Notes under the pieces: model-generated
Told to the model about the DNA's origin: nothing
The model's database searches: none
What the model saw: only the letters and a program-made list of their open reading frames with translations
Shown here: piece by piece, positions 40,401-55,607 of the stretch
Layout of the letters: each line of letters opens with the position of its first letter
Numbering within the stretch: position 1 is the stretch's first letter
Assembly (NCBI GenBank): GCA_963836235.1
Contig: CAWIIP010000002.1
Span: forward strand, 768,001-832,000
From: an uncultured Pseudomonadota bacterium
GTDB lineage: Bacteria > Oederibacteriota > Muellerivitia > Muellerivitales > Muellerivitaceae
Length of the DNA stretch: 64,000 bases
Direction of reading: 5' to 3'
Made by a program: the position numbers and the translations under genes

Positions 40401-41846
40401 CCCACTACCATTAAAGAGATATACGGCCCCATGGTTGCCGCCGATCAACACATTGTTAGCGTTCACGGCGGCCACGGAAAGAAGGTTCTCAGTCACAGGA
40501 ATACCCAAGGCCCCTCCAGCGTTCAGATTGGTAAAGGTGGGAGGACTGCCTACGGTCTCATTATTATTGGAGTAATAGACTTGTCCGTTATTGCCCACGG
40601 CATAAATGTCACCGGAGCCATCATGAGTAATGGCGTTGATACTTCCTACCGGTTGAGCGCCAGGTAATAGGTTAGAGAAAGTTGTACAGCTATTTGGAAA
40701 AGTAACATTGGAAACTTGGAAAACAACGTTAGTCACGCCAGCGGCATTCAAATCATATCCGCCTATAAGAAGCCATCCATCGTTTGTCAAATCTATGGCG
40801 TCCAAATGATCCATGGAATTGGCCCCGCAAAAAGTTGTCGTATTAGTTGGGCCGCCCCCACCCAAAATTGGGGTTAAACAGCCGCCATTGGTATTGATAA
40901 GATTGGCAACGGAAGAACAGAATAAAACTGCGCCGTCACTCGCGGTCACATAAACACCACCACAACTTGGCCCAATTTTAATTGCGGTGAAATTTACCAA
41001 ATCATCCGGGTCCGTCGATCCAGGGTTATCATCAGGATCGTTATCCGCCTCAAAAAATGGAATGGCACCCAAACTAATAAACCCCGACCCACTGTTTACC
41101 AGCACAGTCCTATCATTGCCGACGACCACGTTGGTTACTCCGCCTGTACAGCAATCGATTCCATTTAAGTTTTGGGTGGTGGGTGAGGATTGGGTGGTTA
41201 AGGTGTTATTCGTCTCATTAAGACTTCCGATAAAACCGTTGTTCCCCACCACGTAGCCGCTGGTACTGCCGGGTGAAATACAAATGCCATTACCCTGATA
41301 ACTCACCGGTTGCCCCGGCGTCGGCTCAAAGGCGAGGGCCACACCCGCGCAGGCCTGTCCCAAGGCATTGCTATTCGCCACTGGGCTATTGTTCTGAAAA
41401 AGGGTGGCCGCGTTGGAGACCGGAACCGTCATACCCGAAACGCTTCCCACTAAAACTTGCAGGTCGATATGTTTAGTCGTGTTGTTAGCCATGCTAAAGG
41501 AGCCGAAGGTTACCGGGTTAGGGCCTGTCACCGGTAATACGGGAGAGACGGTGTAAGTACCGGTCGTGATATCCGTCTCGGTACTGACTATCGTGAATCC
41601 TGGCGGAAGGGTGTCCACCACGGTCAAATTATTCTCGGTAGTACCGGTTTGAAAATTATTGATGGTAAGATCGTAGGTGATAGTTGTGCCGGTCGCAAAA
41701 ATTCCCTCGTTGACGATCTTCACGATGGAAAGCCCCGGGGTGGGCGTGAATACGGGAGTTTGGGTTTGCGCCAAAAGCCGCGAAAAGGAAAACGATGTTA
41801 ACGCAAGGGACAAGAAAATTTGGAGAGGAATCTTTTTCAAGGCCAT
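34467..41846 (-). CDS. 2459-aa secreted mosaic protein: DUF11, YCF48/BNR-like propellers, lectin-like and CBM3-like modules, NHL propeller, Thr stalks, T9SS-like CTD
   Basis: Signal peptide; TITYDLTI..VVDTLP; V/IVG.NG repeats; TTDGGVTW and STDDGRTW Asp-boxes; six V.GQ..F blades with SD..NNRVL; C-terminal APN..LYSLAGE..ASGLY. Confidence 0.85.
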   Translation of the reverse strand: MALKKIPLQIFLSLALTSFSFSRLLAQTQTPVFTPTPGLSIVKIVNEGIFATGTTITYDLTINNFQTGTTENNLTVVDTLPPGFTIVSTETDITTGTYTVSPVLPVTGPNPVTFGSFSMANNTTKHIDLQVLVGSVSGMTVPVSNAATLFQNNSPVANSNALGQACAGVALAFEPTPGQPVSYQGNGICISPGSTSGYVVGNNGFIGSLNETNNTLTTQSSPTTQNLNGIDCCTGGVTNVVVGNDRTVLVNSGSGFISLGAIPFFEADNDPDDNPGSTDPDDLVNFTAIKIGPSCGGVYVTASDGAVLFCSSVANLINTNGGCLTPILGGGGPTNTTTFCGANSMDHLDAIDLTNDGWLLIGGYDLNAAGVTNVVFQVSNVTFPNSCTTFSNLLPGAQPVGSINAITHDGSGDIYAVGNNGQVYYSNNNETVGSPPTFTNLNAGGALGIPVTENLLSVAAVNANNVLIGGNHGAVYLFNGSGVQNLSNSMMQNKAVAWITNANGDIIGYAVVCEGTVTTYCLPPVPPIGPPSGTVTPTNTPTNTPSLTGTRTPPTVTTTITSTAFATSTATNTPTFTITSGPGTPGSPTSTQTAAATFTGTFTFTFTQSPNGTSGTGTPGSPTSTQTAAATFTGTPTFTITPNGTSGVGTGTVTTTPNSTSFSTDTPTPTISPTLTETGVANQNTLTPTPTPTPTSTIPVVDYHGVACISAGNGTFINLVVGDDGTLVERTTTGSGASSRVIPVVVSGVPVTVGFHAIFACTADEWWIVGANGTVVWTTDGGVTWNSLVLPGGTGVDLTDVKGNLGCSQLQIIGVGGQLWNVATNGTPGGTSVSGGTLGATSFGSAANCTGYAVPNPSDFSGGLLRFDKTFDFSSGGEQWIVGRNNLGQGFILHSSGSGIFCESSLPTTINGTAVNITEITDIFEQTGPPGSTNIWAVGNEACAGGTCYNVILHSTDDGRTWTSYPQLYTIPGLPNGVSNMTGINIEANTVRITTSTGQLIEFTQDPVTGAPNLLPVTQIGGTLTAVCSCVVCGLEGLFQPISDCSPFAVGGTFTFTPTFTPTYTTTSTTTNTPTLTPSGTFTNTFTPTYTFTVTNTFTISFTPTLTPTTVCTNFKVGSGQIPMSVSYIKFTGLVTQAAVDANNGTWPTALPGTSWIGLDANGDDTGTTTENYVYSGTFPATSAFSSYAIIAAADDAVTEIRINACVFPVFFGGKSFGSIAIPPGCLNTTGFNILTIVVEDTQKPFTGLDFSIVCNPFTPTVTTTFTTTPTNTPTHTATKTPTFTDTYTTTNTLTNTATLTSTFTLTNTPTPTATFTPTFTTTNTSTTSATNTVTYTATYTFTNTFTLTTTPTFTPSYTSTLTFTPTTTPCNCDFVNGAVIAHGPIETPVVGNYCFNEQLLLVPNPSKNYCSNSVSVSFSVVATVGTYTITSSSPDNTFAVPAAPTPYAISIPYTICGPAISNNPVFVILKSLGNTVCNQVITEGFGPLSPTYTSTFAATPTATPTSTATPGTSCVCTGWSTSCGITGLTSTNCASVALTITGTMPAGCSSVTVTLSATPATGTDTFSIVPTSLTISSLPVTVSVTVCDLTSALSGKNFIINMIDANGHTCSSCDPGIVPAFTPTPTFTPTISPTPALCGYGGVASPKVNLQVYCSQTDSQSRRWKVKILNEDSVPVTLSTLSIKMWFDQSGLVTAQWSGSNGTIYNSGGSTAGTINPPPNSAQAVAMSPPCVADSSHIANQVATLTFAGISGAIPVGGWVDGLEAWMTRCGTPCGNWDTPVVDYTQCNGTAYADDPYMAIYNNGHLLQEFVSSTVPDPESGVPPCAQQVTCTPTVTFTPTSTFTATRTFTITPTFTPTISPTPSPTANSTATAQGTATAQANATSTAIAAGTATEIAVATTQANETATTIAALSMTPTFTLTLISSPTATPSPTCPPACIFTPNQNSGLVIGQPNFTSNSVNQGLSNPTSQTLAGSQMGVFQAGNNLFVSDPVNNRVLLYNPVPTGNDPGATQVLGQSSFTGSLSNQTGLSASVTANTLAGPEGVWSNGTTLIVSDTNNNRVLIYHNISTLPIVDGSADVEIGQVDMVHSQANQGSAVGPRTLNINQAQYFVGVFYDGQRLFISDTGNNRVLIFNSLPVTNNAPADEVIGQSSFTNGLSQGSGPQGLFGPSGLWVSNGSLFVADSQNNRVLVYNNAGQGIDTLSEGTTNVAADAVVGQNSFTANAPSNAANGLNFPTGVYSNNCQLYIADSQNFRVVVYNNIPTGTTDPPADQVLGQPNLTTNTPPSSSQQNNLLPIDLQYSNGTLYVTDYDGVRVLGFTCANPSSPSPAFKGIKSSTLGGQSTTTPTPSQTPTITPTPFTGLLASAVVAPNVSRNGGPVKLLVNLGRNAQVHLTLYSLAGEEIYQTMVEGQVGLNSLLWNIQNSNNQAVASGLYVYLLQVDDGQTSESRTGNIAVLR

Positions 41847-42019
41847 TGTCCCGGTAAAGCGTTAAGGGTTCATGATTTTTGTTTGGAGATATTTTTTTGT
41901 GGAGGCCTTATTTTGTTCAAAAGAACTATCTTTGGCAATAAAAAATAACTAATTTGTTGTTCACTTTTTGACGCACCTTAAAGTGCTATAATTTCCACAT
42001 TATTCCGACTAAGGGCCGC

Positions 42020-44668
42020 ATGAAAGCATCCAAATTTTTCATATTGGCATTCAGCCTAATGCCTTTTTCTACTTGGGCAGCTTCTCAAGCCATATCTTTC
42101 TCTGCTCCCCCCAAAAATCCAGCCAATTGGCCTTATGAAGATGGCCAGGTACTCGTTCATTTCCAGAAATCCATACCAAAAGAAACAAGAGAGTCTTGGA
42201 TCAAGACTCTTGGTTACGAATATATCAAACCCCTCTATTCCGACGGATTCCTTTTAAAGGTTCCAAGTGGAACAGTTCCTGAAAAAGTAGAGAGTCTCAA
42301 GCATGACCCTCACTTTCGCCAAGTAACCCCCAACTACCTGGCTTATCCCTTGTCCTACACGCCCTACCCATTTCCCAATGACCCTAACTACCAAAATGGC
42401 AACGACGAATGGAATGTGAATGCCGTTCACATGGACCAAGCCTGGAACTCTAACGACCCTTGGATTGCTAACGCATCGTTAGGCAGATCAACCGCCGTGA
42501 TCGCCGTTTGTGACAGCGGCATCCGAACAACCCATGAGGACTTTGCCGGAAAAATAAATTCCAGCAGTTGGAATTTTTACGACGGGAACAGTGATGTAAC
42601 CGATATTTTTGGCCATGGTACTGCTGTTGCCGGCATTGCCAGTGCGGATGTCAACAACGGGCTTGGTGGAACCGGGATTTGCGCCAATTGTTCACTACTT
42701 GTTATAAAAATCACCCTGCCTAGTGGGGATAGCACGGATTTTTACCTAGAGGAAGGAATACAATACGCATTGCAAAACGGAGCGAAGGGAATCAACATAA
42801 GTTTTGGTGCTCCAGCGGGAACTCTCGATTATTACAGTAATCTTGCCTTCCAAGAAAACAGTGTTGTCGTTGGAGGAATGGGCAATGATGGTTCGAATAA
42901 CCAATATAGTCCTGCTAGTGATCCCAATGCGATCGGCGTGGGGGGGGTGGATCAAAGTGGTTCAAAGTGCTCTTTTTCCACTTATGGTTCTTGGATAGGA
43001 TTAGTGGCTCCAATTTGCAGTTCTGATTTTACTACCCAATACACCTGCGATAGTTGTTATGGTTTTTGGACAGGCACTTCCATGGCCGCTCCCCAGGTTT
43101 CTGCCATGGCCGCCATCCTGCTGGACCTAGGTCTCTCTCCTGCCGCAACTAAACAATGCCTCTATACCACCGCTGATACCTTAGGGGGTGGGTTCAATAT
43201 TCAAACTGGCTGGGGCCGTTTGAATTGCTACCGGGCTTTGGCCGCTATACGCCCCGCTTCCAATCTTTCCGCCTCTGGAGGGATGACCCAAGTTACCCTG
43301 AATTGGGTTGCCCCCCAGACCACCGCTTTTACGACCATCGACTATCTGATTTCCCGTTCCAACACGACTGGCGGCCCCTATACCCAGATAGGCCAAACCC
43401 CTAACGGTACCACTTTGAGTTTCAACGATACTTCTCCCAATCCCAATGTCCCTTACTACTATGTTGTCCAAGCCGTGGACGCCCAAGGCAACACCACGGT
43501 CGTTTCCAACGAATCCTCGGCCATGGCCACCGGCCCAACCTTCACCCCCACCGCCACCACCACCTTTACCGTCACTTCCACCCCCACGCCCAATTACGGC
43601 GACATGAGCGGCTTCACTTACGAAGGGCTCTGGCACCCGGTGAACGACCTGACTTCTCCTTGCCCCAACAGCTATACCCCGCCTTGGGCCGCCTATTGGG
43701 GCATCGACAGCCAATGCAATTTCCAATCAGGGAACACCAACCCAAGCACACTTATTTGCCCACCGTCGCTGTTCAAGGGTGTTGGTACTTCCAATTTTTG
43801 GATTTGGATGGATACGTCACCTAACGGGGCATATATTTACATGCAAACAGAAAGTTGTGGTGGTTGGTCAAATACGTCAATTTCCATACCTCAAAAAACT
43901 TGGTTTCCTATTAGCTATAATCAGGACGCTTGTTCAGGCGTGACCATCATCGCTTCCGCTTTGTCGGCAACCGGTAATACAGGGCGTGGTATATATATTG
44001 ATGACGTGGGTATCGGCACCCCCATCCCTACTTTCACTTTTACCCCCACCGGCACCATCTCCCCCTCGCCTACGGGCACCCCCACCTTCAACGAGTTCGC
44101 CGGAACCCCCACCTCGTCTTCCACCCCTACAAACACCTCCACGGGTACTCCCACACCAACCCCGTCAGCGACCCCCACCGACACCCCAACCGACTCGCCT
44201 ACCGACACCCCCTGCATGGTAGGCGGCATCCCCTGCACCAGCACTTTTAGCTTCACGCCGACCGACAGCTTTACCCCAACCAATAGCCCCACCAACAGCC
44301 CAAGCTTCACGCCGACTTATACCCCTACCTCGACTTCAAGCGTCACACCGACACCCACGACGACCCCCACTTCCACCCTCAACCCTTCCAGCCTTATTTA
44401 CGGTTACCTGGCCTATCCTAACCCCGTCAAAGGAAGCCAAGTGACCTTCGCTTACCAGCTTTCCCTCCCCGCGGATAAAGTCACCTTCAAGCTTTTCACC
44501 ACCGCCTTCCGCAAGGCCGCCGAGTTCAACGGCGCCACCAATGCCGGGGCCAATACCGTGCCTTTCGACGCTTCGAGCCTGGCTAATGGCCTTTACTATG
44601 CCGTTATGGAAGCGCAAGCGGGGGGGCATAAGGAACAGAAAATCGGAAAGCTGATTGTGGCGAAATAA
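42020..44668 (+). CDS. Secreted S8 subtilase with FnIII-like domain, Thr stalk and T9SS-like CTD
   Basis: Triad IAVCDSG / GHGTAVAG / GTSMAAP, oxyanion GMGND; VTLNW..YYYVVQAVD; AYPNP..LANGLYY..KLIV. Confidence 0.92.
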   Translation: MKASKFFILAFSLMPFSTWAASQAISFSAPPKNPANWPYEDGQVLVHFQKSIPKETRESWIKTLGYEYIKPLYSDGFLLKVPSGTVPEKVESLKHDPHFRQVTPNYLAYPLSYTPYPFPNDPNYQNGNDEWNVNAVHMDQAWNSNDPWIANASLGRSTAVIAVCDSGIRTTHEDFAGKINSSSWNFYDGNSDVTDIFGHGTAVAGIASADVNNGLGGTGICANCSLLVIKITLPSGDSTDFYLEEGIQYALQNGAKGINISFGAPAGTLDYYSNLAFQENSVVVGGMGNDGSNNQYSPASDPNAIGVGGVDQSGSKCSFSTYGSWIGLVAPICSSDFTTQYTCDSCYGFWTGTSMAAPQVSAMAAILLDLGLSPAATKQCLYTTADTLGGGFNIQTGWGRLNCYRALAAIRPASNLSASGGMTQVTLNWVAPQTTAFTTIDYLISRSNTTGGPYTQIGQTPNGTTLSFNDTSPNPNVPYYYVVQAVDAQGNTTVVSNESSAMATGPTFTPTATTTFTVTSTPTPNYGDMSGFTYEGLWHPVNDLTSPCPNSYTPPWAAYWGIDSQCNFQSGNTNPSTLICPPSLFKGVGTSNFWIWMDTSPNGAYIYMQTESCGGWSNTSISIPQKTWFPISYNQDACSGVTIIASALSATGNTGRGIYIDDVGIGTPIPTFTFTPTGTISPSPTGTPTFNEFAGTPTSSSTPTNTSTGTPTPTPSATPTDTPTDSPTDTPCMVGGIPCTSTFSFTPTDSFTPTNSPTNSPSFTPTYTPTSTSSVTPTPTTTPTSTLNPSSLIYGYLAYPNPVKGSQVTFAYQLSLPADKVTFKLFTTAFRKAAEFNGATNAGANTVPFDASSLANGLYYAVMEAQAGGHKEQKIGKLIVAK

Positions 44669-44678
44669 AACAGAAAAT

Positions 44679-44710
44679 AAAAAAGGCCCTCGAATTTTTC
44701 GGGAGCCCTT
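44679..44710 (-). terminator. Intrinsic terminator between convergent genes
   Basis: Imperfect stem ggccctcgaa/ttcgggagcc with an A6 run on + (U-tail on minus). Confidence 0.6.
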
Positions 44711-44768
44711 GTCTCGAGCAAGCGAACCACGTGCTCAATCAGAGAATCAATCGCCTTCCACGAGCCCT

Positions 44769-45203
44769 TTAAAGGGGAATATTGAAGGCATTAAGCCGCT
44801 TGAGGAAATGGGCGGGCGGTTCAATGATGACACCTTGGAAGGACATTAATGGCAGCAGGTGTTTCTTGTCCCCGGTGACGAGCACATCGCATTTTCCAAT
44901 GATTGCCACTTCCAAAACCCTGTCATCGGGTTGGTAGTTGATCGCGTTGATCCCGCCAGCCGGGACACAAACCGTGGAAGCGCTTCTGAACCGGTCTATC
45001 AAACGGCCGACTTTGTGCTCATGTTGGCCCATCTTATGGATGAGAACCCGGCGGACTTCCTCGAGGATATTGGGGCCGGTAACGTGGGAATAATCGAAGT
45101 CATAAAGCCGGTTTAAAATTTGGAGCGGGACGCCGCCATAAGCCACGCCGGAGATAATGACGTTGGCATCCAGGCAAACGGTTAAGGCGGACTTACCCGG
45201 CAA
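44769..45203 (-). CDS. PIN-family (PIN_3-like) toxin
   Basis: VCLDANVIISG, ILEE, DDRVLEVA, DVLVTGDKKHLL. Confidence 0.9.
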   Translation of the reverse strand: MPGKSALTVCLDANVIISGVAYGGVPLQILNRLYDFDYSHVTGPNILEEVRRVLIHKMGQHEHKVGRLIDRFRSASTVCVPAGGINAINYQPDDRVLEVAIIGKCDVLVTGDKKHLLPLMSFQGVIIEPPAHFLKRLNAFNIPL

Positions 45204-45429
45204 ATGGGCCGCCGAAGGCCGCGGAAGTTATCTTGTGTTTTTTGACGTACTTGCTGGTGCTCGCGTGGAGCTCGAGAAGTTCTTTTTTGGCCTGGTAGCG
45301 GTCGAAAGCGTCCCTAAGAATCGCGGTAACGGTGCGGTGTTCTTTCTTGGCCGCGGCGAGGACTTCTTTGCCCATGTCGGCGGGGAACGCGAACGTTATC
45401 GTCTTTGGCATCTTCAATTTTGTTGTCAT
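45193..45429 (-). CDS. Ribbon-helix-helix antitoxin
   Basis: TITFAFP...V...AKKEHRT...ILRDAF; overlaps the PIN gene. Confidence 0.8.
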   Translation of the reverse strand: MTTKLKMPKTITFAFPADMGKEVLAAAKKEHRTVTAILRDAFDRYQAKKELLELHASTSKYVKKHKITSAAFGGPFAG

Positions 45430-45459
45430 GGGATCCCCAGGTTGAATTCTTAATACATC

Positions 45460-45528
45460 TTATGGGCCTCCATCGGCCAATTCAAGGAGAAGAAGAAAAG
45501 GAAAAAAAATATCGGCTAAAAACCTCAT
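45460..45528 (-). pseudogene. Truncated remnant of a DUF5615 (PIN-like) toxin gene
   Basis: ATGA overlap with the DUF433 stop; begins MRFLAD, then unrelated sequence to a stop after 22 codons. Confidence 0.55.
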
Positions 45529-45752
45529 ACACCACTGCCCGTCAGGGGATGAACCTCCTCTTGGACCAGGGCGGCGGCATATTGGAGGGCTTGGTGGATA
45601 TCCTCCGCTTCAAGGTCGGGGTATTCCTGGAGTATTTCCTTCGTCGTCATGCCATCGGCAACCATGTTCACGACATGCGCAACGGTGATCCTCATTCCAC
45701 GGATACAAGCCTTCCCACCCATGATTTTCGGTTCAAAAGTAATCCTGTCCAT
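45525..45752 (-). CDS. DUF433 family antitoxin-like protein
   Basis: RITFEPKIMGGKACIRGMRITV...EILQEYPDLEAEDI..AL.YAA; GGAGG RBS. Confidence 0.93.
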   Translation of the reverse strand: MDRITFEPKIMGGKACIRGMRITVAHVVNMVADGMTTKEILQEYPDLEAEDIHQALQYAAALVQEEVHPLTGSGV

Positions 45753-46164
45753 TCACGGCCTCCCTTAGCCAAAAGCCTTGCGACGAAAACAGTTTAGCAC
45801 ACACGGCGCACTGAATGAATCCTGCCTATTATTGGGAATGAATTTGCCTATCAAAACCGGCTTGCCTTTTCACCATCCAACAAAAGTGACCCCCTTCAGG
45901 ACTAACTCAAGCCCGTCACAAAGTTCGTTTCTCTCGTTTCAGAACCACCGAAATTTTCCGCCTCGGCGCTTATCTTCACAGTCAGCTTCTATTCGAATCC
46001 CAAAACAGGCCAATTATTGTTCAAAAAATGTCTAAGGTTAAAGCGGAAACCTTTTTTCCCTAAAATTTTATTTGACGAAAAACATTTTTTGGAAATATCC
46101 TCCCCGCCATCAAGCTTCTTTAAAAATTTCATGGGCTTGAAATTTATTTTCTGGAGGAACGTTT

Positions 46165-47625
46165 ATGGAACCGATTTTGCTTCAAATCCCTGTCGCCAGG
46201 ATAAGACCCAACCCCAACAACTCCCGCCCAGTGATTACCCACGAAATGATCGAGATCAAGAAAGCCTCACTCGAGGCCGACGGCCAGTTGGACCCCATCA
46301 AGGTTCGACCCCTCACCCAGGAGGAAAAGGCTTCCGACCCGGAGCATGACTATGAGCTCATCGGGGGCCATATCCGGCTGGAGGCCGCCAAAAGCCTGGG
46401 CTGGGAAACCTTGAGGGCTTTGGTCTTTGCCTATACCCCCGCCGAAGCCGTCCTGCCTGGCATCATGGACAACAAGGGCCAGGACAGGCATTGGTTCTGT
46501 AAGTACCTGGATATCGAAGCCTTGTTGAAGGTATACCCGGACCTCTCCCAAAGACAGCTGGCCAACCGGCTGGAAATGAGCAAAACCGTCATAAACGAAG
46601 GTTTAAAACTATTAAAGTTCCTTAATCCATCCGCAAGGGAGTTGGTTGTCCGCACTGCGAACATAACAGAGCCTGCTACGACCTCAAGTGTCCGCAGTGC
46701 GGACACTACGGAACCTTCAAAAGCCTCAGATGTCCGCACTGCGGACACCATGGAGACGCCAGAAGACCCATGGGAGCTGGCGGAAGCCCCCGTCTATTGC
46801 CTCATGGACCTGGCGAACCCTCAAATGTCCTTGGAAGATATCCAGGACCTCATCTTAAAAGCCTTAAAAGTGGTCATTGACCGTCAAATGAGCGAATCCC
46901 AGGTGGAAAAACTGGTCGTTTGGATTGAAAAGGGCAACAGCCCCGAAAGTTTTGAGGATAAGGCTGAGCAGGTTCCTAACGAGGACCCCAACGACCCCCA
47001 TTCCTCTTATTGGACGGCCCTCCCCCCAAACGTCAAGGTAACCCGGACCAAAAAGGGATATGAAGTGCACGCCTCCCTGGCCCATAACGAGGGAGTACCG
47101 GTGGTTTATGGGATGTTGTCGAACCTTGAACACCTCAAACTGTTGTCGAAGGAACCCCATGACCCGCAATTCCGAAGCAAGCTGGAAGGGGTGATGGAGG
47201 AGGGGCGAAAAGCCCGGATCACCGCGAGGGAAGAGGCGGCCAAACAGGAAGCGGAACGCCAGGCGGCCCTTCAAGCGAAGGCCCAAGCCAAGGCCCAAAA
47301 GGCGGAGGCGGCAAAAGCAAAAAAAGAAGCATTATCTAAAACTGAGGTTGCTTCGTCGTCTTCGGCTTCCTATTCGGAAGCCACTCCTCGCAATGACGGA
47401 CAGCCCCAAGTTGGCCAGCCGAGTGCCGAAGCCGAAGCGGCTTCGGCCAATGACAGCAAAAAGGGATGGCTGAATCGAATCGCGGAAATGCTGAAGCAAA
47501 AGACCGGCATGGATGGGGGAGAGGTGGTGGAAGCCGTCGAAAGAAACCTTTGGAAGGACCTCAAATCGGCGGTCAATACCGTCATCAAGCAGATCTTTCG
47601 GCGATTCATTAAGAGAACCTTTTAG
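46165..47625 (+). CDS. Orphan ParB/Spo0J-like protein (CTPase-like N-domain, HTH, long C-terminal extension)
   Basis: IRPNPNNSR, GQLDPIKVR, YELIGGHIRLEAAKSLG, HTH LSQRQLANRLEMSKTVI; GGAGGA RBS; no parA adjacent. Confidence 0.85.
   Translation: MEPILLQIPVARIRPNPNNSRPVITHEMIEIKKASLEADGQLDPIKVRPLTQEEKASDPEHDYELIGGHIRLEAAKSLGWETLRALVFAYTPAEAVLPGIMDNKGQDRHWFCKYLDIEALLKVYPDLSQRQLANRLEMSKTVINEGLKLLKFLNPSARELVVRTANITEPATTSSVRSADTTEPSKASDVRTADTMETPEDPWELAEAPVYCLMDLANPQMSLEDIQDLILKALKVVIDRQMSESQVEKLVVWIEKGNSPESFEDKAEQVPNEDPNDPHSSYWTALPPNVKVTRTKKGYEVHASLAHNEGVPVVYGMLSNLEHLKLLSKEPHDPQFRSKLEGVMEEGRKARITAREEAAKQEAERQAALQAKAQAKAQKAEAAKAKKEALSKTEVASSSSASYSEATPRNDGQPQVGQPSAEAEAASANDSKKGWLNRIAEMLKQKTGMDGGEVVEAVERNLWKDLKSAVNTVIKQIFRRFIKRTF
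46647..46747. repeat. Three 17-bp palindromes TGTCCGCA(C/G)TGCG(G/A)ACA at 42-bp period inside the ParB-like gene
   Basis: tgtccgcactgcgaaca 46647-46663; tgtccgcagtgcggaca 46689-46705; tgtccgcactgcggaca 46731-46747. Confidence 0.92.
47344..47398. repeat. 3' half-copy of the REP/RPE-like element, in frame within the ParB-like CDS
   Basis: gaggttgcttcgtcg..ggcttcc-tattc-ggaagcc..ctcctcgcaatgacg aligns with about 1818-1862. Confidence 0.7.
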
Positions 47626-47642
47626 GGATAAAGGCCTCTTGA

Positions 47643-47690
47643 ACCACGACCTCTTAGCCTTTGGCCAAGAGGTCGTGGTGAAATGTTTTT
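47643..47690 (+). terminator. Strong hairpin after the ParB-like gene, probable terminator
   Basis: 13-bp perfect stem accacgacctctt/aagaggtcgtggt, followed shortly by tgttttt. Confidence 0.65.
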
Positions 47691-47788
47691 AAACAAGTAA
47701 CCGACTTTTCGCTTAATTTCCCCCACTCTTATAAAACACTTCACCGGAAAGGCCTCTTATAATAAGCCAATCCAATTTCCGGGTATTC

Positions 47789-50155
47789 ATGAACCAAGAA
47801 CATCCATCTCCCCTCATCCAAGAGCTTCACCAAGGGTTCTTCTCCCCCGCCTCAAGCCGGAAGGCCTGGGCGGCCCTGGTCCTAGGCGTAGCGGTCTTGG
47901 TCCTTTTCGCCCGGGCCCTCTTCTCCGGCGATACCCTGGTTTCCACTCCGGACGGCGACCTGGCCAACCAGTTTTACGCCTGGCGGGATTTCGGTTTTTC
48001 CGAACTGCGAAAAGGGCATTTGGCCCTTTGGAACCCCTACATCTATTGCGGGGCGCCTTTCTTCGCCGGTTTCCAGTCCGCCCTTCTCTATCCCCCTAAC
48101 TGGCTTTTTCTCTTTCTTCCCCTGGTATTCGCCCTGAACTTTTCCATCGCCCTCCACGTCTTCCTGGCGGGCTTTTTCACCTACCTTTGGCTGGCCGCGA
48201 ACCGCTTAAGTTTCCTGGCCGCACTCTTCGGAGCCTTCGTTTTCATGTTCGGCGGGGCTTACTTTTCGCATGTTACCCCCGGCCACTTGCCGAACCTTTG
48301 CACCATGGCCTGGATTCCCCTGGTCTTTCTTTGCGTGGAGGGTCTCTTGAAATCCCCCGGTTTAATAGAAGCCCTCGTGGGCATGGGGGTTTTGTCCCTC
48401 CAACTCTTGTCCGGCCATGCCCAATATTTTATTTACACCCTCTTCCTGGCGGGCCTTTACGCCTTGGCGCTCGAGATCCGGAACCCCGAAAAGAGATGGA
48501 GCAAGGCCCTTTATGGCCTGTCCATGCTTTTGGGGGCGCTCGCGGTCACTTCCATCCAATGGCTGGCCGGATTGGAGGCTAAGGGAGAAAACCTACGGGT
48601 AAGCGCCGGCTCCCCGGAGGCCCAACGTTTCTTTTCCCTGAACCCCCTGGATTCCTTGACGGTTTTGGCCTCCGGCCTGGGCGGGAAAGAAACCCGTTTC
48701 TTTTGCTGGAGCGGCTCCCGGATTTGGTGGGAGTCCTGCCTCTATATTGGAATCACCGCTTTTCTCTTGGCGATTTACGGGCTCACCCGAAGCGAAAGTC
48801 CCAAGGGGAAAAAAGGGGTCCTGTTGGGCCTGGCCCTTTTATCGCTCTTATTGGCCTTTGGTTTTTACACGCCCCTTTATCCCCTCCTGAACGAATGCGT
48901 TCCTTTCTTTGACTCCTTCCGGGGTACTTTCAAGTTCGGCATCTTTTTCCAATTAGCTTTCGCTTTCCTCGCCGCCGGAGGGCTCCAATGCTGGTTTTCC
49001 GCCACGAGGGAAAAAAAGTGGCCCGCTTTCCTGGCCTTCGGCCTGTCGGCAGTTTTTCTGGCCGCCACCTTTTCGGTTTTCCAAGGGTCCAGCTTGGACG
49101 GACTTTCTTCCCTACTTTCCTGGAACGATTCCGAAGCCCTTTCACCCCAATCTCCCCAATTCCTTCTCCAGATAGACGCGGCAAGAATCGTCAACCTAGC
49201 CGGGGCTTCCCTCCTTTTCCTGGCTTTCGGCCTGCTCTGGAGTTGGACTTCCCTAGGGGCAGTAAGAAAAATCGCCCTGGCCTTCCTGGGCATGGCGAAC
49301 TTGTGGGCCTTCGCGGGGGCCAATCTTCCCACCTTTGACGCCCAACAAATGAAATCCAGGGAAGCCGAGATTCAAAAAGCCTTGTCCCCCCAATTGGGGG
49401 ATGGGCGGATCTATTGGACCTCCCATGACGACCGTGCCCTTTCCCTGGGCTTGCCGGACATCTGGGGCGATGACCCCCTGCTTCCGAGGCGCTACAATTA
49501 TTTCATGACCTACACGGGAAATCCCTTGAACCCCTCTTTCGCTCCTGACACCCAAAAGCTTACCCTCACTCTTTCTAAAATCCGTCTAGTCCGCCTAGGC
49601 TATCTCCTAGACACGAAGAGCGAAGGCCTTCATATCACGCCCCTACCCTATTCCCGCCTGCCGCGCGCCTTTTTGGCCGGGCGATGGAAGCAAGTGGGAA
49701 GCGCCCAGGAGGCGATGGAAAATATTTCCCGTCCGGATTTTGATCCGGGGGCTGAAGTTCTTTTGGAAGAGTCACCCGTCATCTTGCCGGAGGAAAATGT
49801 CGCTCAAGGACAAGTAACACTGCAGGACCGGACCACCGATGAGGTCGAAATCCATGTCCAAACGGAGAAACCCCAAATCCTCATGATGACCGACAACTAC
49901 AGCCGGGGATGGAAAGCGGTAGCCTACCCTGACAGTGTTCAGCAAAAATACAAGGTGATGCCCGGAGATTATTTTAGCCGGGCCATCCCACTTTCATCCG
50001 GGAACCACCATTTTCTTTTGAAATACAACCCGGCGGCCTTCGAGGTTGGAAAATGGATTTCCTTAGCATCGCTCCTGGCTTATCTCCTCGCTTGGGTCTG
50101 GTGGGGATGGAAAAACAACCCTTTCCAAGGTGGAAAAGCGGCTCCCCTTGGATAA
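47789..50155 (+). CDS. YfhO-like (GT-C fold) membrane glycosyltransferase 4
   Basis: DLANQF, GHLALWNPYIYCGAPFFA, LLYPPN, LSGHAQ, YSRGWKA. Confidence 0.82.
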   Translation: MNQEHPSPLIQELHQGFFSPASSRKAWAALVLGVAVLVLFARALFSGDTLVSTPDGDLANQFYAWRDFGFSELRKGHLALWNPYIYCGAPFFAGFQSALLYPPNWLFLFLPLVFALNFSIALHVFLAGFFTYLWLAANRLSFLAALFGAFVFMFGGAYFSHVTPGHLPNLCTMAWIPLVFLCVEGLLKSPGLIEALVGMGVLSLQLLSGHAQYFIYTLFLAGLYALALEIRNPEKRWSKALYGLSMLLGALAVTSIQWLAGLEAKGENLRVSAGSPEAQRFFSLNPLDSLTVLASGLGGKETRFFCWSGSRIWWESCLYIGITAFLLAIYGLTRSESPKGKKGVLLGLALLSLLLAFGFYTPLYPLLNECVPFFDSFRGTFKFGIFFQLAFAFLAAGGLQCWFSATREKKWPAFLAFGLSAVFLAATFSVFQGSSLDGLSSLLSWNDSEALSPQSPQFLLQIDAARIVNLAGASLLFLAFGLLWSWTSLGAVRKIALAFLGMANLWAFAGANLPTFDAQQMKSREAEIQKALSPQLGDGRIYWTSHDDRALSLGLPDIWGDDPLLPRRYNYFMTYTGNPLNPSFAPDTQKLTLTLSKIRLVRLGYLLDTKSEGLHITPLPYSRLPRAFLAGRWKQVGSAQEAMENISRPDFDPGAEVLLEESPVILPEENVAQGQVTLQDRTTDEVEIHVQTEKPQILMMTDNYSRGWKAVAYPDSVQQKYKVMPGDYFSRAIPLSSGNHHFLLKYNPAAFEVGKWISLASLLAYLLAWVWWGWKNNPFQGGKAAPLG

Positions 50156-52199
50156 AGGAGTGAACGAGAAAAGCTTTTTACCCGGAATCCTGCTTTTGCT
50201 GCTGGCTTTTGAGCTGGCCCTTTTGGGCCTGAACCCTTCCTTCTATATGGATGACAGCCCGGAGATCATCACCGTCTCGGCCTGCCTGGGGATCGCCCAT
50301 CCTCCCGGTTATCCCCTCTTCATCCTCCTGGGCCGACTCTTTTCCCTTCTGCCCCTGGGGCCGCTCTGCCTTCGGGTCAACCTGCTTTCGGCTTTCACGG
50401 GGGCCCTGGCCTGCTATTTATTGTTTCGGTTCCTGAAGGATCGTTTCAACCTGGGCCTTTCCTTGAGCCTTCCCTTTGCCCTTCTTTGGATGGCCGGGGC
50501 CACCGCCTATCCCGCCGCCTTGAGCGCCAAGAACGGTATTTACCAGCTGACGGCTGTTTTCCTTTTAGCCGTCCTGGGCGCCCTTTTTCGGGGACGCCGC
50601 TCCCTCGCTCTTTTTCTTTTTGGCCTGTCCCTGGGCAACCATTGGATGAGCATGATGGCGGCCGGGAGCGGTTTCGCCTTTCTGGCCTGGATCCAGTTGA
50701 GGGAAAGGGAAGGGGCGGCCAAGGAACTGGTAAAAAGCGCGGCCTTCTTGGTGGTGGGACTTTCCCTTTACCTTTACCTGCCCTTAAGGTCCTCCCTGGA
50801 CCCCCTCGTCAATTGGGCCCATCCCGTGGATGCGGAAAATTTCCTGCGCCACGTGAGCCGTTACGTAGACAAGGACAAGGATTTTACGGGAGACGCTTTT
50901 TTGTGGGCCCAGCAGGGTTTTTACTACCTGCGTTCGGCCTTGGTGGAATTTTCAGGCCTGGGCCTTTTGGCCCTTTGCGGAATCTTCGCCGCTTGGCGCG
51001 GGGAGCGCCGTCAGGCGGCGGGCTTGCTTCTTTCCTGGGCGGGGCTCTTCGCCGCCGTTTGTGTTTTCTCCAAGTTCTCCAGCCAAAAAATTTACCTGAT
51101 GCAGAATTATTCCATCGCCTCTTTTATTTTCATCCCCCTCTTCGCGGGCCTGGGTTTTCGTTTCCTCCTCCAACTTCTAGGCCGCCGCCATCCTAAGGCC
51201 GTCAAGGCCGCCCCCGTTGCCGTCTGGTTGCTGGTGCTGGCCCTGGCCGTGGCCCGCTGGCTTCAAGGGGGCCAAGAATTTTACACCTACACTTACGATT
51301 ATGTTTTGAACGCCTGGCGTTCGGTTCCCGTGGGCGGGCTCTTCTTTTGCAAGGGCGACGTTTTGGATTTCCCCTGCTGGTACTTCCAGCTGTTGGAGGG
51401 AAAAAGGCCCGACCTTCCGGTGTTGGGCGGCGGAAGCCTGCCGATGGATTGGTACCGGATCTTTTTAGCCCGCACCCAGCCGGGACTCAAAGTCCCCTAT
51501 CCTTTCCACGAGAAGGGCAAGGAATATATCTCGGGCCACCTGATCCAATGGATGGTGGAGCAAAACCCCGGGCACCGGCTCTTTTTCACTTATCCTGACT
51601 TGGGGCCGGACGGTTTGGGTGAAATGCGTCTGGTTCCCAACGGCATGACCCAGGAGGGCTTTCTGCCCCCCGCCGGTCCCCTCTTTGACGAAGCGGAAGC
51701 CGAACGGCTTTGGGCCGATATGCGCCTGAGGCATTATCAAAAACCGGATGATTCGGTGGATGAGGTTTCCTGGGACTACTTCTTGAAGGACTACGGGATG
51801 GCGCGGCTTTGGATGGCGGCGAAATACATGGGAGAAGCCCAGGCGTTAGCGGTTCAGGGAAACCCTTCCCCGGCCCCGCGACAAAAGGCCCATTCCCTTT
51901 ATGAAAAAACCCTTCCCCATCTTTTATGGGCGCAAAACTGGGACCCCCAAAATCCCGGCTATGCCGTCAATGTCGGCCTCGACCTCTTTTTCATGGGGGA
52001 TTTGAAACAAGCCGGGGACTGGTTCGCGAAAGCGGCCCGGATCGATCCCCGCTATGCGGATGCCTATTACTATGAGGGCGTGGTGGCCTATCAAACCGGG
52101 AATAAGGCGGAAGCCCGGAGATTATTTGAGAAAACCCTCGCCTTAAACCCCAACCACGCCCAAGCCGCCCGGTCTTTTCGGGCACTCTCGGTGCCTTGA
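50130..52199 (+). CDS. DUF2723/TMEM260-like GT-C protein with C-terminal TPRs; start uncertain
   Basis: DDSPE, GIAHPPGYPL, GLSLGNH, YLYLPLRS...NW, GD..F..WY.Q..EG.RPD, TPRs. Confidence 0.85.
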   Translation: MEKRLPLDKGVNEKSFLPGILLLLLAFELALLGLNPSFYMDDSPEIITVSACLGIAHPPGYPLFILLGRLFSLLPLGPLCLRVNLLSAFTGALACYLLFRFLKDRFNLGLSLSLPFALLWMAGATAYPAALSAKNGIYQLTAVFLLAVLGALFRGRRSLALFLFGLSLGNHWMSMMAAGSGFAFLAWIQLREREGAAKELVKSAAFLVVGLSLYLYLPLRSSLDPLVNWAHPVDAENFLRHVSRYVDKDKDFTGDAFLWAQQGFYYLRSALVEFSGLGLLALCGIFAAWRGERRQAAGLLLSWAGLFAAVCVFSKFSSQKIYLMQNYSIASFIFIPLFAGLGFRFLLQLLGRRHPKAVKAAPVAVWLLVLALAVARWLQGGQEFYTYTYDYVLNAWRSVPVGGLFFCKGDVLDFPCWYFQLLEGKRPDLPVLGGGSLPMDWYRIFLARTQPGLKVPYPFHEKGKEYISGHLIQWMVEQNPGHRLFFTYPDLGPDGLGEMRLVPNGMTQEGFLPPAGPLFDEAEAERLWADMRLRHYQKPDDSVDEVSWDYFLKDYGMARLWMAAKYMGEAQALAVQGNPSPAPRQKAHSLYEKTLPHLLWAQNWDPQNPGYAVNVGLDLFFMGDLKQAGDWFAKAARIDPRYADAYYYEGVVAYQTGNKAEARRLFEKTLALNPNHAQAARSFRALSVP

Positions 52200-52259
52200 T
52201 AATAGGCTGGCATCAACCGCTTTTAAAATTTTTCCGTGAGCCCGAAATCCTAACAAGGA

Positions 52260-55200
52260 TTAATGAATGACGACGACCTTGCCCGTCCATCGCTGGGACC
52301 CTGAGCCATTATTGACCTCAAGCGCGTAAAGGTACAAACTGCTCGCGACCGCCTGCCCGGACTGGTTTTGAACCTGCCAAAGCAGGTTGTTCAGGCCCGC
52401 GTTTCCCGCAATAGTGCTTTGGTAGATTTGTTCCCCCAAAAGGGTGTACAAGGACAAATGAACCTGGGCCGGCCCCGGCAACTGGACTTTAAATTGAATA
52501 GGTTCATCGTTCCGGGAAATATTCGGCGCCACCACCACCGCCAGGTTGCCCAAGGTGGGACTGGGGGTGACGGTAAATGTCGGTGTCATCGTGGAAGTGG
52601 GCGTTTCCGCGCGTTGCGCATTCTTGGAAAGGGCCGCGATTTTGACCGACAGGGCAACGGCGGTGGGCGTGGGCCCGCAAGGCACGTATTCCCCCACGAT
52701 CATATTGACCGAATTAACATAAAGTACCCCGCTCGGGCTGACGGCTACCCCCAAGGGGTAACCTATTTGATTGGCGGCCTCATCCGGACCCGTGGCGATC
52801 TGGCAGACCGGATTGCCATTGGGGTCATATTTGGAGACGGGGTTTAAGCCTTCACCCGCCACGTAAATATATCCCGCCGAATCCGCCGTTAAATTGACGC
52901 CGATGCTGCTCCAGGAGATACCGGTAGCGACTCCCGCCGCGGTGAATTGATGAACCCCGGTGCCGTCGAGTACGTAAACCAATTCCGTGTTGCTGACGCA
53001 GATTCCCTTAGGGGCGCTAAATCCCCCGCTTTCCCCAAATTGCGTGGGGATACCCCCGGGCGCCCCCCCGTTGTAGGTAAATTCCTGGACCCTGCCGTTT
53101 AAGCCCTCATCCACCGTGTAAACATTATTGGACACCGGGTCCACCGCGACGCCGAACAGCCCCGCGAATTGGCCAATGGCAATCCCGCTGGTTCCCCATT
53201 GGTTTAAATAACCGCCGGTGGGACCGAATACCTCCACCCGGCTGTTTCCTTGGTCCGCCACGTAAATGGAAGTGCCGGCCGAATTGACGGCGATTTCATA
53301 GGGACCGTTTAAATTGCCGTTTCCGGATCCCGTCCCGCCAAAGGAGAGGATGAAATTCGTGGAGGAACCGGAGGTGTCGAACTTATCCACCAGGTTGTTC
53401 GCCTGGTCCGTGACATAGACGCACGGCCCGGGCTGCCCGTTGCAGTTGGTGCTGTTATCAAGGGCGATGTCATAAACGGGGTTGCCGAAACTATAGCTCC
53501 CGTCTGCGTCGCTTCCGGAAGTTCCCCACTTTAAGGAGAAGTTATAACAGCAGCCGCCCGGGGTTGAAGTGACGCTGGGTGTGGGAGTCAGGGTGGGCGT
53601 ATTGGTTAGGGTTGAAGTGGCCGTCGACATGCTGGTGTTGGTTGGCGTCGGGCTTGGCGTAATAGTTGTCGTCTCCGTAAGCGTATTCGTGGGAGTGCGT
53701 GTTTCCGTTACGGTCCTGGTATTCGTCACCGTACGAGTTGCGGTGGTTGTGGGGGAATTAGTCCTCGTCGGCGTTATGGTGGCGGTCCTCGTCGGTGTGC
53801 GAGTGTCGGTGACCGTCCGTGTATTGGTCGGCGTGCGGGTTTCTGTCACTGTCCTCGTATTGGTTACGGTTCCCGTCGGCGTATGAGTCTCCGTTACGGT
53901 TCGTGTATGTGTCGGGGTGTGGGTATCCGTCACGGTCCTGGTATTCGTCACCGTATGAGTCGCGGTGATTGTGGGGGAATTAGTCCTCGTGGGGGTTATG
54001 GTCGGCGTCCTGGTGGGGGTACGGGTATCCGTTACTGTTCGAGTATTGGTCGGGGTGCGGGTGTCTGTTGCTGTCCTTGTGTTGGTAACGGTTCTCGTCG
54101 GGGTGCCGGTGGGGGTTTGGGTTACCGTCACGGTGGGCGTAAAAGTCCAGGTGGGAGCCGGAATGCATGACGAAATACTCGAGAGAGCTTTGTAGACGTC
54201 CAACAGGCCATAGCCCTGGGTGGGTGTCCAGCCCGTTTGGCCCGGCAGAAGGTCGGTATTGCTGATAATGGCTTGGGTGACTTGCACATTCGTGAGGTTC
54301 GGGCACAAGCAGAACATCAAAGCGGCCGTGCCGGAGACGTAAGGAGCCGAGGCCGAGGTTCCGGCGGCGATGCAAAAGTTGCTGTCCGCGGGGTTGGCTA
54401 TGAAATCGGCCGGGTTGGCCGAAAAGGGGCAATTGAGGCGGGCCCCAAAGACATTCTGCGAGGCGTCAAGGGTGAAATTACCGGTAGCCATGGCCGACCC
54501 TCCCGGGGCGACCAGGTCCAACCCGGGGCCTGAGTTGGAATAAAAAGCAATGCCGCCGCTGGCGTCCGTGGCTCCTACCGATATCAACGCCGGAAGGGAA
54601 TAAGGAGGATTGGTAAAGCTCGCGGGGAAAAGCAAGGGAACGGCCGTACCATCGTCCCCGGAGGAAGCCACCGCGACGCAACCGTTGGACATCGCGTATT
54701 GCAGCACTAAGTACTGTAAATAATCAGGAAGCATTCCTCCCAAGGACAGGTTTAAAACCTTGGCGCCGTTTTCGATCGCGTAAAGCGTTCCATAAGCCAC
54801 ACCAGCGGCGGAGCCACTGCCCGTGTTGTCCAAAACCTTGACCGGCATGAGCTTCACACCCGGAGCCAAACCCGCCATCCCGGTGGTGGAAGAACCCGGA
54901 TTGCAGGCTTCCGGCTGAACCGTACTTTGCCATTGGGCCCAAAGAAGAGAGGAAACAAAAGTCCCGTGACCAAAATCATCGTCCGTCGGTTCGACCGTTG
55001 TGTAGGGAGCTAACCCCAAAGTGGGTTGGGGTGGATCCACCAAACCCGTAAAGGCGTTGTATCCTGGAACAAAAAGGGAAGGGGGAAGATCCGGATGGGA
55101 CCTCGTCACGCCAGTATCGATCACGGCTACCGTCACCGAGCAACCCGGTGGACAGGAATTCCAAGTAATATTTTGCCAGGCTTGGGGAGCGCTGATTTGC

Positions 55201-55607
55201 TGTAGGGGCCAATTATAAGGTGAACTGTAATACTGGTCGGTTGGCAGAGGACAGCCCAGCGCGTAATAGCGGACATTCGGCTCGGCCCAAAGGACGGAAG
55301 GATCGCTTTGGCATTCGCTGACGGCTTGGGAAACCCCTAACCCGCCTTGAAGCTCAACTTTGAAAATACCCTCGAACAAGGGATTGGAAACCGGCAGTTT
55401 CAGGCGGTCGGCTCTTCCCAGGTGGCGCAAAAAAATTTCCGATTGAAACCGGTTTATGCCGGGTTTGAACTGGACAAGGATTTCCCCCGGTACGTAGGCT
55501 TCTTTTCCGGCCATACCCGATACCAAAGACTTCGCTTCGCTTGCGGTTCCAATGAGGAAGAACGCCATGAATAACCATACGATTCCAGTCAATAATAAAT
55601 TTTTCAT
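52260..55607 (-). CDS. Secreted S8 subtilase with Thr stalk, NHL propeller and T9SS-like CTD
   Basis: YVPGEILVQFK and AEPN prodomain; VAVIDTG / GHGTFVS / GTSASAP; YVADQGNSRV NHL repeats; APN..LYTLLGE..ASSLY..KVVVIH. Confidence 0.92.
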   Translation of the reverse strand: MKNLLLTGIVWLFMAFFLIGTASEAKSLVSGMAGKEAYVPGEILVQFKPGINRFQSEIFLRHLGRADRLKLPVSNPLFEGIFKVELQGGLGVSQAVSECQSDPSVLWAEPNVRYYALGCPLPTDQYYSSPYNWPLQQISAPQAWQNITWNSCPPGCSVTVAVIDTGVTRSHPDLPPSLFVPGYNAFTGLVDPPQPTLGLAPYTTVEPTDDDFGHGTFVSSLLWAQWQSTVQPEACNPGSSTTGMAGLAPGVKLMPVKVLDNTGSGSAAGVAYGTLYAIENGAKVLNLSLGGMLPDYLQYLVLQYAMSNGCVAVASSGDDGTAVPLLFPASFTNPPYSLPALISVGATDASGGIAFYSNSGPGLDLVAPGGSAMATGNFTLDASQNVFGARLNCPFSANPADFIANPADSNFCIAAGTSASAPYVSGTAALMFCLCPNLTNVQVTQAIISNTDLLPGQTGWTPTQGYGLLDVYKALSSISSCIPAPTWTFTPTVTVTQTPTGTPTRTVTNTRTATDTRTPTNTRTVTDTRTPTRTPTITPTRTNSPTITATHTVTNTRTVTDTHTPTHTRTVTETHTPTGTVTNTRTVTETRTPTNTRTVTDTRTPTRTATITPTRTNSPTTTATRTVTNTRTVTETRTPTNTLTETTTITPSPTPTNTSMSTATSTLTNTPTLTPTPSVTSTPGGCCYNFSLKWGTSGSDADGSYSFGNPVYDIALDNSTNCNGQPGPCVYVTDQANNLVDKFDTSGSSTNFILSFGGTGSGNGNLNGPYEIAVNSAGTSIYVADQGNSRVEVFGPTGGYLNQWGTSGIAIGQFAGLFGVAVDPVSNNVYTVDEGLNGRVQEFTYNGGAPGGIPTQFGESGGFSAPKGICVSNTELVYVLDGTGVHQFTAAGVATGISWSSIGVNLTADSAGYIYVAGEGLNPVSKYDPNGNPVCQIATGPDEAANQIGYPLGVAVSPSGVLYVNSVNMIVGEYVPCGPTPTAVALSVKIAALSKNAQRAETPTSTMTPTFTVTPSPTLGNLAVVVAPNISRNDEPIQFKVQLPGPAQVHLSLYTLLGEQIYQSTIAGNAGLNNLLWQVQNQSGQAVASSLYLYALEVNNGSGSQRWTGKVVVIH

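Follow-up and report, generated by a model that had tools for sequence, protein, structure and literature searches.

The contig CAWIIP010000002.1 of the uncultured bacterial assembly GCA_963836235.1 was found to carry a gene for a predicted ParB/Noc-like protein which includes, inside its own coding sequence, three palindromes of the kind that such proteins are predicted to bind. The stretch analysed, here termed the window, comprises 64,000 nucleotides and corresponds to G000:C2:768001-832000, G000 being the source genome; coordinates are those of the 64-kb window unless prefixed with a contig. The gene, an open reading frame (ORF) on the + strand, encodes a protein of 486 amino acids (aa), designated P0001, and its features, including the helix-turn-helix (HTH), are arranged as follows.

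46036..46164, + strand: upstream region, ~99% identical to that of the twin gene on contig C4 (BLAST against the own genome, list of differences).
46165..47625, + strand: gene for the predicted ParB/Noc-like protein P0001, 486 aa (ORF, translation, PF02195, AlphaFold2 (AF2) model, Foldseek).
46180..46473, + strand: ParB N-terminal (ParB/Srx fold) domain, residues 6-103, with box II GGHIRLEAA (Pfam, column make-up).
46549..46620, + strand: HTH, residues 129-152, helices 129-136 and 140-152 (AF2 secondary structure, hidden Markov model alignment to the HTH of Spo0J and Noc).
46648..46773, + strand: array of three 42-bp (14-codon) units (unit comparison, alignment A1).
46647..46663, no strand: predicted site copy 1, TGTCCGCACTGCGAACA, one arm mismatch, centre 46655; peptide in helix 155-166.
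46687..46707, no strand: predicted site copy 2, AGTGTCCGCAGTGCGGACACT, perfect 21-bp palindrome, centre 46697; peptide in a disordered insert.
46731..46747, no strand: predicted site copy 3, TGTCCGCACTGCGGACA, perfect 17-bp palindrome, centre 46739; peptide in the disordered insert.
46783..46950, + strand: middle domain, helical and conserved, residues 207-262, with the family motif W..GN.PE.F at its end (alignments A1 and A2).
47542..47622, + strand: basic-hydrophobic C-terminal tail, ...KQIFRRFIKRTF (sequence).

The first-pass annotation of this DNA had described the product of ORF 46165-47625 as ParB-like, and both the ORF call and a match of residues 6-103 to PF02195 (ParB_N; 33.8 bits, cut-off 26.3), which places P0001 in the ParB/Srx superfamily (Pfam), bear this out. 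For residues 1-282 a 61-sequence alignment gave an AF2 model with a predicted local distance difference test (pLDDT) score of 90.2, whose top Foldseek matches in PDB are Noc, ParB and KorB (E 2e-10 to 1e-6); sulfiredoxin structures are matched as well, and the alignments cover ~250 columns. As in proteins of the ParB/Noc/KorB type, the HTH, within which R130 is encoded by 46552-46554, directly follows the N-terminal domain, and the profile alignment with Spo0J, Noc and ParB extends across their HTH. The fold of P0001, as modelled, is ParB/Noc-like, and the middle domain is modelled as helices 207-216, 223-239 and 244-255.

The score of P0001 with TIGR00180 (parB_part) was 46.4 bits, below the cut-off of 58.45, and that with TIGR04285 (Noc) was 47.5 bits, below the cut-off of 315 though this was the top NCBIfam match. 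The Pfam domain starts at residue 6 of MEPILLQIPV..., with no N-terminal extension or amphipathic helix before it, so that there is no space for the ParA-stimulating peptide that lies ahead of the cytidine triphosphatase (CTPase) domain in partition ParB proteins, as described in the main text of a published survey (PMC12704722). No transmembrane segment was predicted in P0001 by the Kyte-Doolittle method, and its C-terminal tail may form an amphipathic helix that binds membranes.

The pattern TGTCCGCA-N-TGCGGACA matches the window at 46647-46663, 46689-46705 and 46731-46747, and gave 0 matches in 100 window shuffles. The first-pass annotation had counted three 17-bp palindromes, which holds for copies 2 and 3, both perfect, while the right arm of copy 1, TGCGAACA, has one mismatch. 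Its other readings of the array were accurate: the middle palindrome extends to 21 bp (46687-46707, perfect), the centres at 46655, 46697 and 46739 are 42 bp apart, translation gives VRTAN, VRSAD and VRTAD, and the base at the centre flips between C and G (C, G, C). The spacers have diverged as it had stated, the 27-bp spacers being identical at 11-16/27 positions (41-59%) and the 15-bp cores at 13-14/15. Within the core the third-codon positions are identical across all three copies (5/5), the central base and one arm base being those that vary. The three copies constitute a diverged 14-codon tandem repeat and hence cannot count as independent events; Tandem Repeats Finder, even at a minimum score of 30, did not report the 42-bp array because of the divergence of its units. 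Alignment A1 with the closest homologues shows the array as inserted sequence in the loop that follows the HTH. In the model, helix 155-166 spans copy 1, while the loop 167-206 (pLDDT 53-70) contains copies 2 and 3. Copy 1, judging from the alignments, is at the ancestral position, common to the whole family. Separately from the array, a perfect 17-bp palindrome, GCCGAAGCGGCTTCGGC, is present at 47431-47447 in the low-complexity C-terminal part of the gene, and the genome contains 7 occurrences of a 14-mer found close by, at 47386.

P0001 belongs to a family of ParB/Noc-like proteins of uncultured soil bacteria. In an exhaustive profile search of 1.84 billion cluster representatives the family was defined as the 244 proteins found at E <=1e-30, and ~35,859 further proteins at E <=1e-10 were ordinary ParB relatives. 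A word-indexed protein search disclosed only 6 proteins, a search of genome contigs 2 related loci, both in one metagenome-assembled genome labelled candidate division FCPU426, and a metagenome-contig search with the narrower alignment A3 22 loci of one subfamily. For analysis at the DNA level 65 distinct family genes from G000 and 13 related genomes (14 in total) were anchored at the residue equivalent to R158. Hydrophobic segments after the DNA-binding module, at least one per ORF, were predicted in 37/65 of the family ORFs (Kyte-Doolittle), many of which are cut by the locus ends.

The palindrome was found to be fixed in position throughout this family. In six further G000 paralogues the homologous place, immediately behind the HTH, is occupied by a perfect odd palindrome of 17-25 bp whose sequence differs from one paralogue to the next. 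At least one perfect odd palindrome (arms of at least 7, within 240 nt after the anchor codon) occurs in 40/65 genes, and 47 of the 48 perfect palindromes are centred on codon position 2. The anchored centre is the second base of the sixth codon after the conserved Arg, 19 nt after the anchor codon. At this centre 37/65 genes have at least 7/10 complementary pairs and 14/65 have 10/10; the background for at least 7/10 pairs, taken from 28,639 same-phase centres elsewhere in the same genes, is 0.0053. When the best of the centres +19, +61 and +103 is considered, 45/65 genes reach at least 7 pairs. The same trend was seen from the protein side among 148 cluster representatives, partly overlapping the 65-gene set (e.g. 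P0002 and P0007): the peptide at the anchored codons is palindrome-compatible over at least 3 pairs in 45/148 and over at least 2 pairs in 98/148, with backgrounds of 0.47% and 2.7%, respectively. Fifteen more sites with 10-11/11 pairs were contributed by 17 metagenome genes of one subfamily. Additional copies occur, in several clades, only at +42, +84, +168 and +210 nt from the first centre; such 42-bp-step arrays, of 2 to 5 units, are present in the P0001 gene, L024, L030, L048, L057 and L022/L032, which lie in separate clades of the tree. In the loci L011, L042, L043, L045 and L054 of relatives a short palindrome-less module ('CHEG...GGYRF', ending GNEPEEYF) adjoins the palindrome-bearing module or is fused behind it.

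What is conserved at the site is the symmetry of the DNA and not the peptide, as the first-pass annotation had proposed. The peptides encoded there include IYKTFIN, SVSSGNT, LIVRNPNNS, LIIPIRNNS, NPEPFRN and others; from one homologue to the next the peptide changes and the symmetry, at the same codon, persists, which is the opposite of a peptide repeat retained without DNA symmetry. Seven different palindromes are found among the G000 paralogues, changed symmetrically on both arms. Between the paralogues C1_368 and C5_40 a compensatory C/G swap exchanges Pro and Arg (PIR to RIP or the reverse), the two copies in L048, 42 bp apart, differ by a compensatory pair, and in one subfamily the 7+1+7 core varies in sequence yet stays symmetric throughout, between constant AATT ends. 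Two orthologues with 43% aa identity have site regions whose DNA is 0.93-0.97 identical, third positions included.

The genome was scanned for the palindromes, a check suggested in the first-pass annotation, and each G000 palindrome proved confined to its own gene at up to 1 mismatch, the sites of P0001 being shared with the 99%-identical twin gene on C4. The sites of L048, L010 and L008 are likewise confined to their own genes in genomes G021, G016 and G013, respectively, at up to 2 mismatches in 19. Symmetric variants were met in non-coding DNA, of the P0001-type site at C2:1300115 (1300115-1300135) and C4:953171, and of the site type of another paralogue at C2:2047123. At G000:C4:953000-953480, C2:1300115-1300135 and C2:2047084-2047149, all non-coding, family-type odd palindromes stand beside iteron-like direct repeats and include an exact 19-bp core of another paralogue's site; these palindromes may be extra binding sites. 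Non-coding DNA at G000:C4:276950-277320, 3.5 kb upstream of a paralogue, contains in tandem three decayed, out-of-frame fragments of the type 'palindrome + NSNKGI...'. The 16-bp chromosomal parS consensus has 0 matches in G000 at up to 1 mismatch and 2 at 2 mismatches; a perfect 16-bp palindromic variant with 2 mismatches to it lies at C2:1753774.

Many of the half-sites begin with TGT, eight bases from the single central base and in one fixed register. Chromosomal parS half-sites likewise begin with TGT. The family sites show symmetry, an 8-nt TGT-initial half-site and covariation between residue and base, and with their odd central base have 17 bp where parS has 16. The covariation, which the first-pass annotation had proposed to look for, concerns R130 in the first HTH helix and site position -7, whose mutual information is the highest among all protein columns and site positions (z 8.9). 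In an enlarged set of 85 rows, 53 of them with strong sites, members with R130 have TG at -7 in 34/34 cases, while those with another residue have G in 3/19; with Q at position 130 the base at -7 is T in 6/7 members. In R-bearing members the codon that carries G(-7) encodes V, A, D or G and has only its first base G in common, so that the link of R130 is to the base and not to a residue. L062 (R, TGTC) and its sister gene L029 (G, TAGT) are unlike in both traits. In ParB and Noc, residue 173, which is R in ParB and Q in Noc, reads the base termed 'position 1' by Jalal et al., an adenine in the Noc-binding site (NBS) (PMC7383237). Position 1 distinguishes parS from NBS and is presumably equivalent to base -7 of the family site. 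If the proteins bind these sites, a first rule of specificity is visible here, in which R130 goes with G, Q with T and small residues with A at -7.

The analysis shows constraint at the DNA level, a fixed position, privacy in the genomes tested, the ParB/Noc fold and residue-base covariation. The explanation that best accommodates them, and which is probably correct, is that the proteins of this family bind parS-like sites inside their own genes, P0001 being a diverged binder of the ParB/Noc type; the central idea of the first-pass annotation, a gene encoding both a ParB-like binder and its own palindromic sites, is well supported by the comparative evidence. The cognate site would lie at one coding position, with its dyad centre on the second base of the sixth codon past the conserved Arg after the HTH, and the private sequence of each paralogue would have evolved by changes on both arms. 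In the P0001 gene the site-bearing 14-codon unit would have been triplicated; with 42 bp, or about four helical turns, from one to the next, three dimers could then line up along the same face of the DNA, as in a miniature sopC centromere. That P0001 binds its own gene appears likely on these comparative grounds.

Several observations weigh against this explanation. At all three anchored centres 20/65 genes have fewer than 7/10 pairs, and the entire short subfamily 'CHEG...GGYRF' has no palindrome, so that the site is not obligatory. In one orthologue pair synonymous conservation goes on for ~60 nt after the palindrome, farther than a short site would account for, and a same-genus genome (one searched, 80% complete) had no family member. 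Few independent contrasts are available between R130 and G(-7): one tree yields 5 on well-supported branches (sign test p 0.06-0.25), the larger set yields 4 (p 0.25-1), and none in either set is opposite; L012 and L014 have R, and their sole perfect palindrome is not TG-initial. R130 aligns with a Glu of canonical ParB and not with the specificity residue 173. Finally, the sequence of the nucleoside triphosphate (NTP)-binding box, for cytidine triphosphate (CTP), is degenerate in P0001: GGHIRLEAA stands where ParB has GERRxRA, and MDNKGQD stands at the ENxxR box. Across 61 family members the conserved box columns are G68 (60/61), R71 (57/61) and N103 (57/61), and the variable ones are 69 (H 25, E 21), 70 (L 19, R 18) and 73 (R 19, A 18).

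To the same side of the balance belong the length of the symmetry, the place of its defects and the folding of the RNA, which can also be accounted for if the palindromes act as nucleic-acid structures, either as mRNA hairpins or pairing repeat copies that affect translation pausing, mRNA stability or the timing of folding or membrane insertion, or as DNA cruciforms. Perfect symmetry extends over 21-27 bp, and over 43 bp in L063, exceeding a ParB footprint of the 16-bp type, which would suit a hairpin, or the copying of one arm from the other by template switching. Mismatches are most frequent at the innermost pair (25/99), as expected if the central codon forms a 3-nt loop. The predicted RNA fold of 46630-46775 has a minimum free energy of -58.7 kcal/mol and is more stable than shuffles (z -3.9), copies 2 and 3 being paired, and compensatory changes combined with freedom of sequence are what a stem would give. 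For a stem, however, an HTH residue should be irrelevant, yet base -7 is tracked by R130, nor would a stem require that many half-sites start with TGT in a fixed register, a feature in which they resemble chromosomal parS. The mismatches show no G.U bias in the sense RNA (21 of G.T type against 25 of A.C type), and the strict 42-bp register corresponds to DNA helical phasing and has no obvious meaning in RNA. No Rfam family reached threshold in a scan of 45000-48500; a hit to mir-460 (20.4 bits, threshold 52) was treated as a chance match. An explanation by structure was judged unlikely.

It is less probable still that the sites are bound by a different protein, be it another family member, such as a short palindrome-less paralogue, or an unrelated regulator. 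The occurrence in relatives of 'CHEG'-type modules beside or behind palindrome-bearing ones would suit this possibility, as would the look-alike sites outside genes in G000. Each site is different, however, and the sole component that varies with it is the gene in which it is contained; the covarying residue is in the HTH of the same protein, and the P0001 gene has no such neighbour.

Equally improbable is a functionless by-product, that is, a quasi-palindrome kept perfect by intrastrand template switching or a hotspot of gene conversion among paralogues. The long arms are perfectly symmetric right to the centre, the two G000 twins share 99% identity across 1275 bp before diverging, a sign of recent conversion or duplication, and the decayed 'palindrome + NSNKGI' fragments lie in non-coding DNA. 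A neutral element, on the other hand, would not last at one codon through paralogues of 25-45% identity in 14 genomes, has no reason to track an HTH residue and would not duplicate solely in 42-bp steps; template switching may restore symmetry but leaves its retention unexplained.

That one 14-residue unit was palindromic by luck and then triplicated under selection for its peptide is very improbable, and this reading is refuted: about one 8+1+8 palindrome is expected per 64 kb (64,000 x 4^-8) and the three copies are a single tandem repeat, but the family-wide enrichment at one codon (37/65 against 0.5%), the persistence of symmetry while peptides vary and the frozen synonymous positions are at odds with it. 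A further idea, in which the site would be read by the very peptide that the palindrome encodes, was dropped.

What binding of the proteins to their own genes would accomplish is less certain. Occupancy within the transcribed region might lead to negative autoregulation by a roadblock, with protein and site staying linked through duplication; this tentative proposal falls somewhat short of an even chance. A little less probable, the complex might mark the locus or tether it to the membrane through the C-terminal membrane segments of most members, P0001 having a tail only. The first-pass annotation had seen in the gene a self-contained module of a clamp and its loading sites; the core of that idea, a binder with its own sites, stands on comparative evidence, while for the clamp part P0001 has the box GGHIRLEAA, and of this box and the ENxxR box only G68, R71 and N103 are conserved in the family. 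NTP-dependent loading of a clamp that slides onto neighbouring genes is a doubtful possibility. The roles which the first-pass annotation had put forward, among them autoregulation, silencing of surface genes and locus positioning, may likewise follow from binding. The most speculative proposal, and an improbable one, is that the ~250 sequence clusters are a natural library of mutually orthogonal, self-addressed ParB/Noc-like proteins. The private palindrome would be the address, placed behind the codons of the reading head; each protein would be delivered to its own locus, perhaps during synthesis, and its membrane segments would pin that locus to the membrane. With a dozen such genes, a genome would possess a system that addresses its chromosome to the membrane, and specificity would evolve through symmetric site changes together with changes of HTH residues, e.g. 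R130.

If binding is true, dozens of natural protein-site pairs can be read from sequence, and the evolution of ParB/Noc specificity becomes directly testable. The family would also be a source of orthogonal ParB/site pairs for the labelling of DNA loci, and neither duplication nor transfer could physically part an operator from its regulator. The findings point to an unstudied activity in uncultured soil bacteria, whether autoregulation, locus marking or membrane tethering.

In its genomic setting the gene is not the orphan that the first-pass annotation had supposed, for G000 contains ~10 paralogous loci and a canonical 292-aa ParB. The closest is the twin gene at G000:C4:488442-489716, which differs from window positions 46036-47310 at 11 places in 1275 bp, the similarity setting in 129 bp before the start codon; all three sites are present in the twin as well, and its 3' part has diverged. 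The twin pair indicates, on this comparison, a recent duplication or gene conversion. A single promoter-like match upstream of the P0001 gene, at 46072-46101, was returned by a consensus scan and is not by itself evidence of function. A search of sequencing runs listed no RNA data set with this DNA. Both twins lie among glycosyltransferase and surface-protein genes, that on C4 in a glycosyltransferase cluster. As had been noted, no parA or rep gene is adjacent: no ParA or Rep family was detected in 7 large ORFs neighbouring the P0001 gene, nor any ParA family near the C4 twin (10 ORFs scanned), and no neighbour typical of a partition ParB was seen at either locus. No neighbour gene recurs around the 10 G000 paralogues. 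The window neighbours (34467-45203 and 47789-55607) include a 2459-aa NHL/BNR-repeat protein, two S8 peptidases, one with NHL repeats, a PIN-domain ORF, a 788-aa protein without Pfam match and a TMEM260-like GT-C glycosyltransferase with TPR repeats. An ORF of 455-459 aa, 94.5% identical between its two occurrences, lies downstream of two paralogues (G000:C1:372133-373512 and C4:609648-611015) and may be a gene of a mobile element. In plasmid and phage collections 0/64 and 0/2 matching records, respectively, cover at least 80% of the query, all with less than 60% identity; these matches are distant ordinary ParB only.

In the literature searched no description was found of ParB-family genes with private intragenic palindromes, supplements, which might list such proteins, being outside the scope; the main text of the survey PMC12704722, again apart from its supplements, contains no mention of palindromes, intragenic or coding-sequence sites, transmembrane segments or paralogues. 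An mRNA structure described at the 5' end of Caulobacter parB (PMC13371061) was considered and set aside as a different feature. Among parS-359, sopC, Noc and KorB there is no precedent that unites private sites, a fixed codon, paralogue expansion and absence of ParA, and each resembles the family in part.

The site parS-359 is described as a ParB binding site within the coding sequence of Bacillus subtilis parB (spo0J) (PMC4442127). It resembles the family sites, as predicted here, in lying inside the gene of the protein that binds it, but it is one of several common parS copies near the origin that serve ParABS segregation, whereas the family sites are private to each paralogue, fixed at one codon in the region of the DNA-binding domain, without ParA and usually without another copy in the genome. 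The sopC centromere bound by SopB of the F plasmid is reported to repeat a 43-bp unit 12 times, and every unit contains a 16-bp inverted repeat (PMC3177203). It shares with the family arrays, here 2 to 5 x 42 bp, the tandem direct repeats with one inverted repeat of ParB-family type in each; sopC, however, is non-coding and beside sopAB on a plasmid, while arrays of the P0001 type are translated, chromosomal and without a partner ATPase.

Noc and its NBS are closest in structure and profile, 7ol9, 7nfu and 7ng0 being the best matches in structural and profile comparison and TIGR04285 the top NCBIfam match. Noc is described as a ParB paralogue with altered palindrome specificity that joins DNA to the membrane (PMC8429893; PMC7383237), and a membrane link is echoed by the segments predicted in 37/65 family ORFs. 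The sites of Noc are many and scattered, in contrast to the private intragenic family sites; Noc has an N-terminal amphipathic helix, which P0001 is without, and the covarying Arg of the family is in the first HTH helix and not at residue 173. KorB, matched in structure by 8qa9 (E 1e-6), is a gene regulator of the ParB family which is reported to load at palindromic operators (PMC11790492), OB on plasmid RK2. It acts on a plasmid together with KorA and the ParA protein IncC, partners not present near the family genes in G000. In genomes with several replicons a cell contains several orthogonal ParB/parS pairs, every ParB paralogue having a palindrome of its own; these pairs serve separate replicons, have ParA partners and use sites outside genes. 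The family differs from such pairs in having up to ~10 loci on chromosome-sized contigs, with the site inside each gene.

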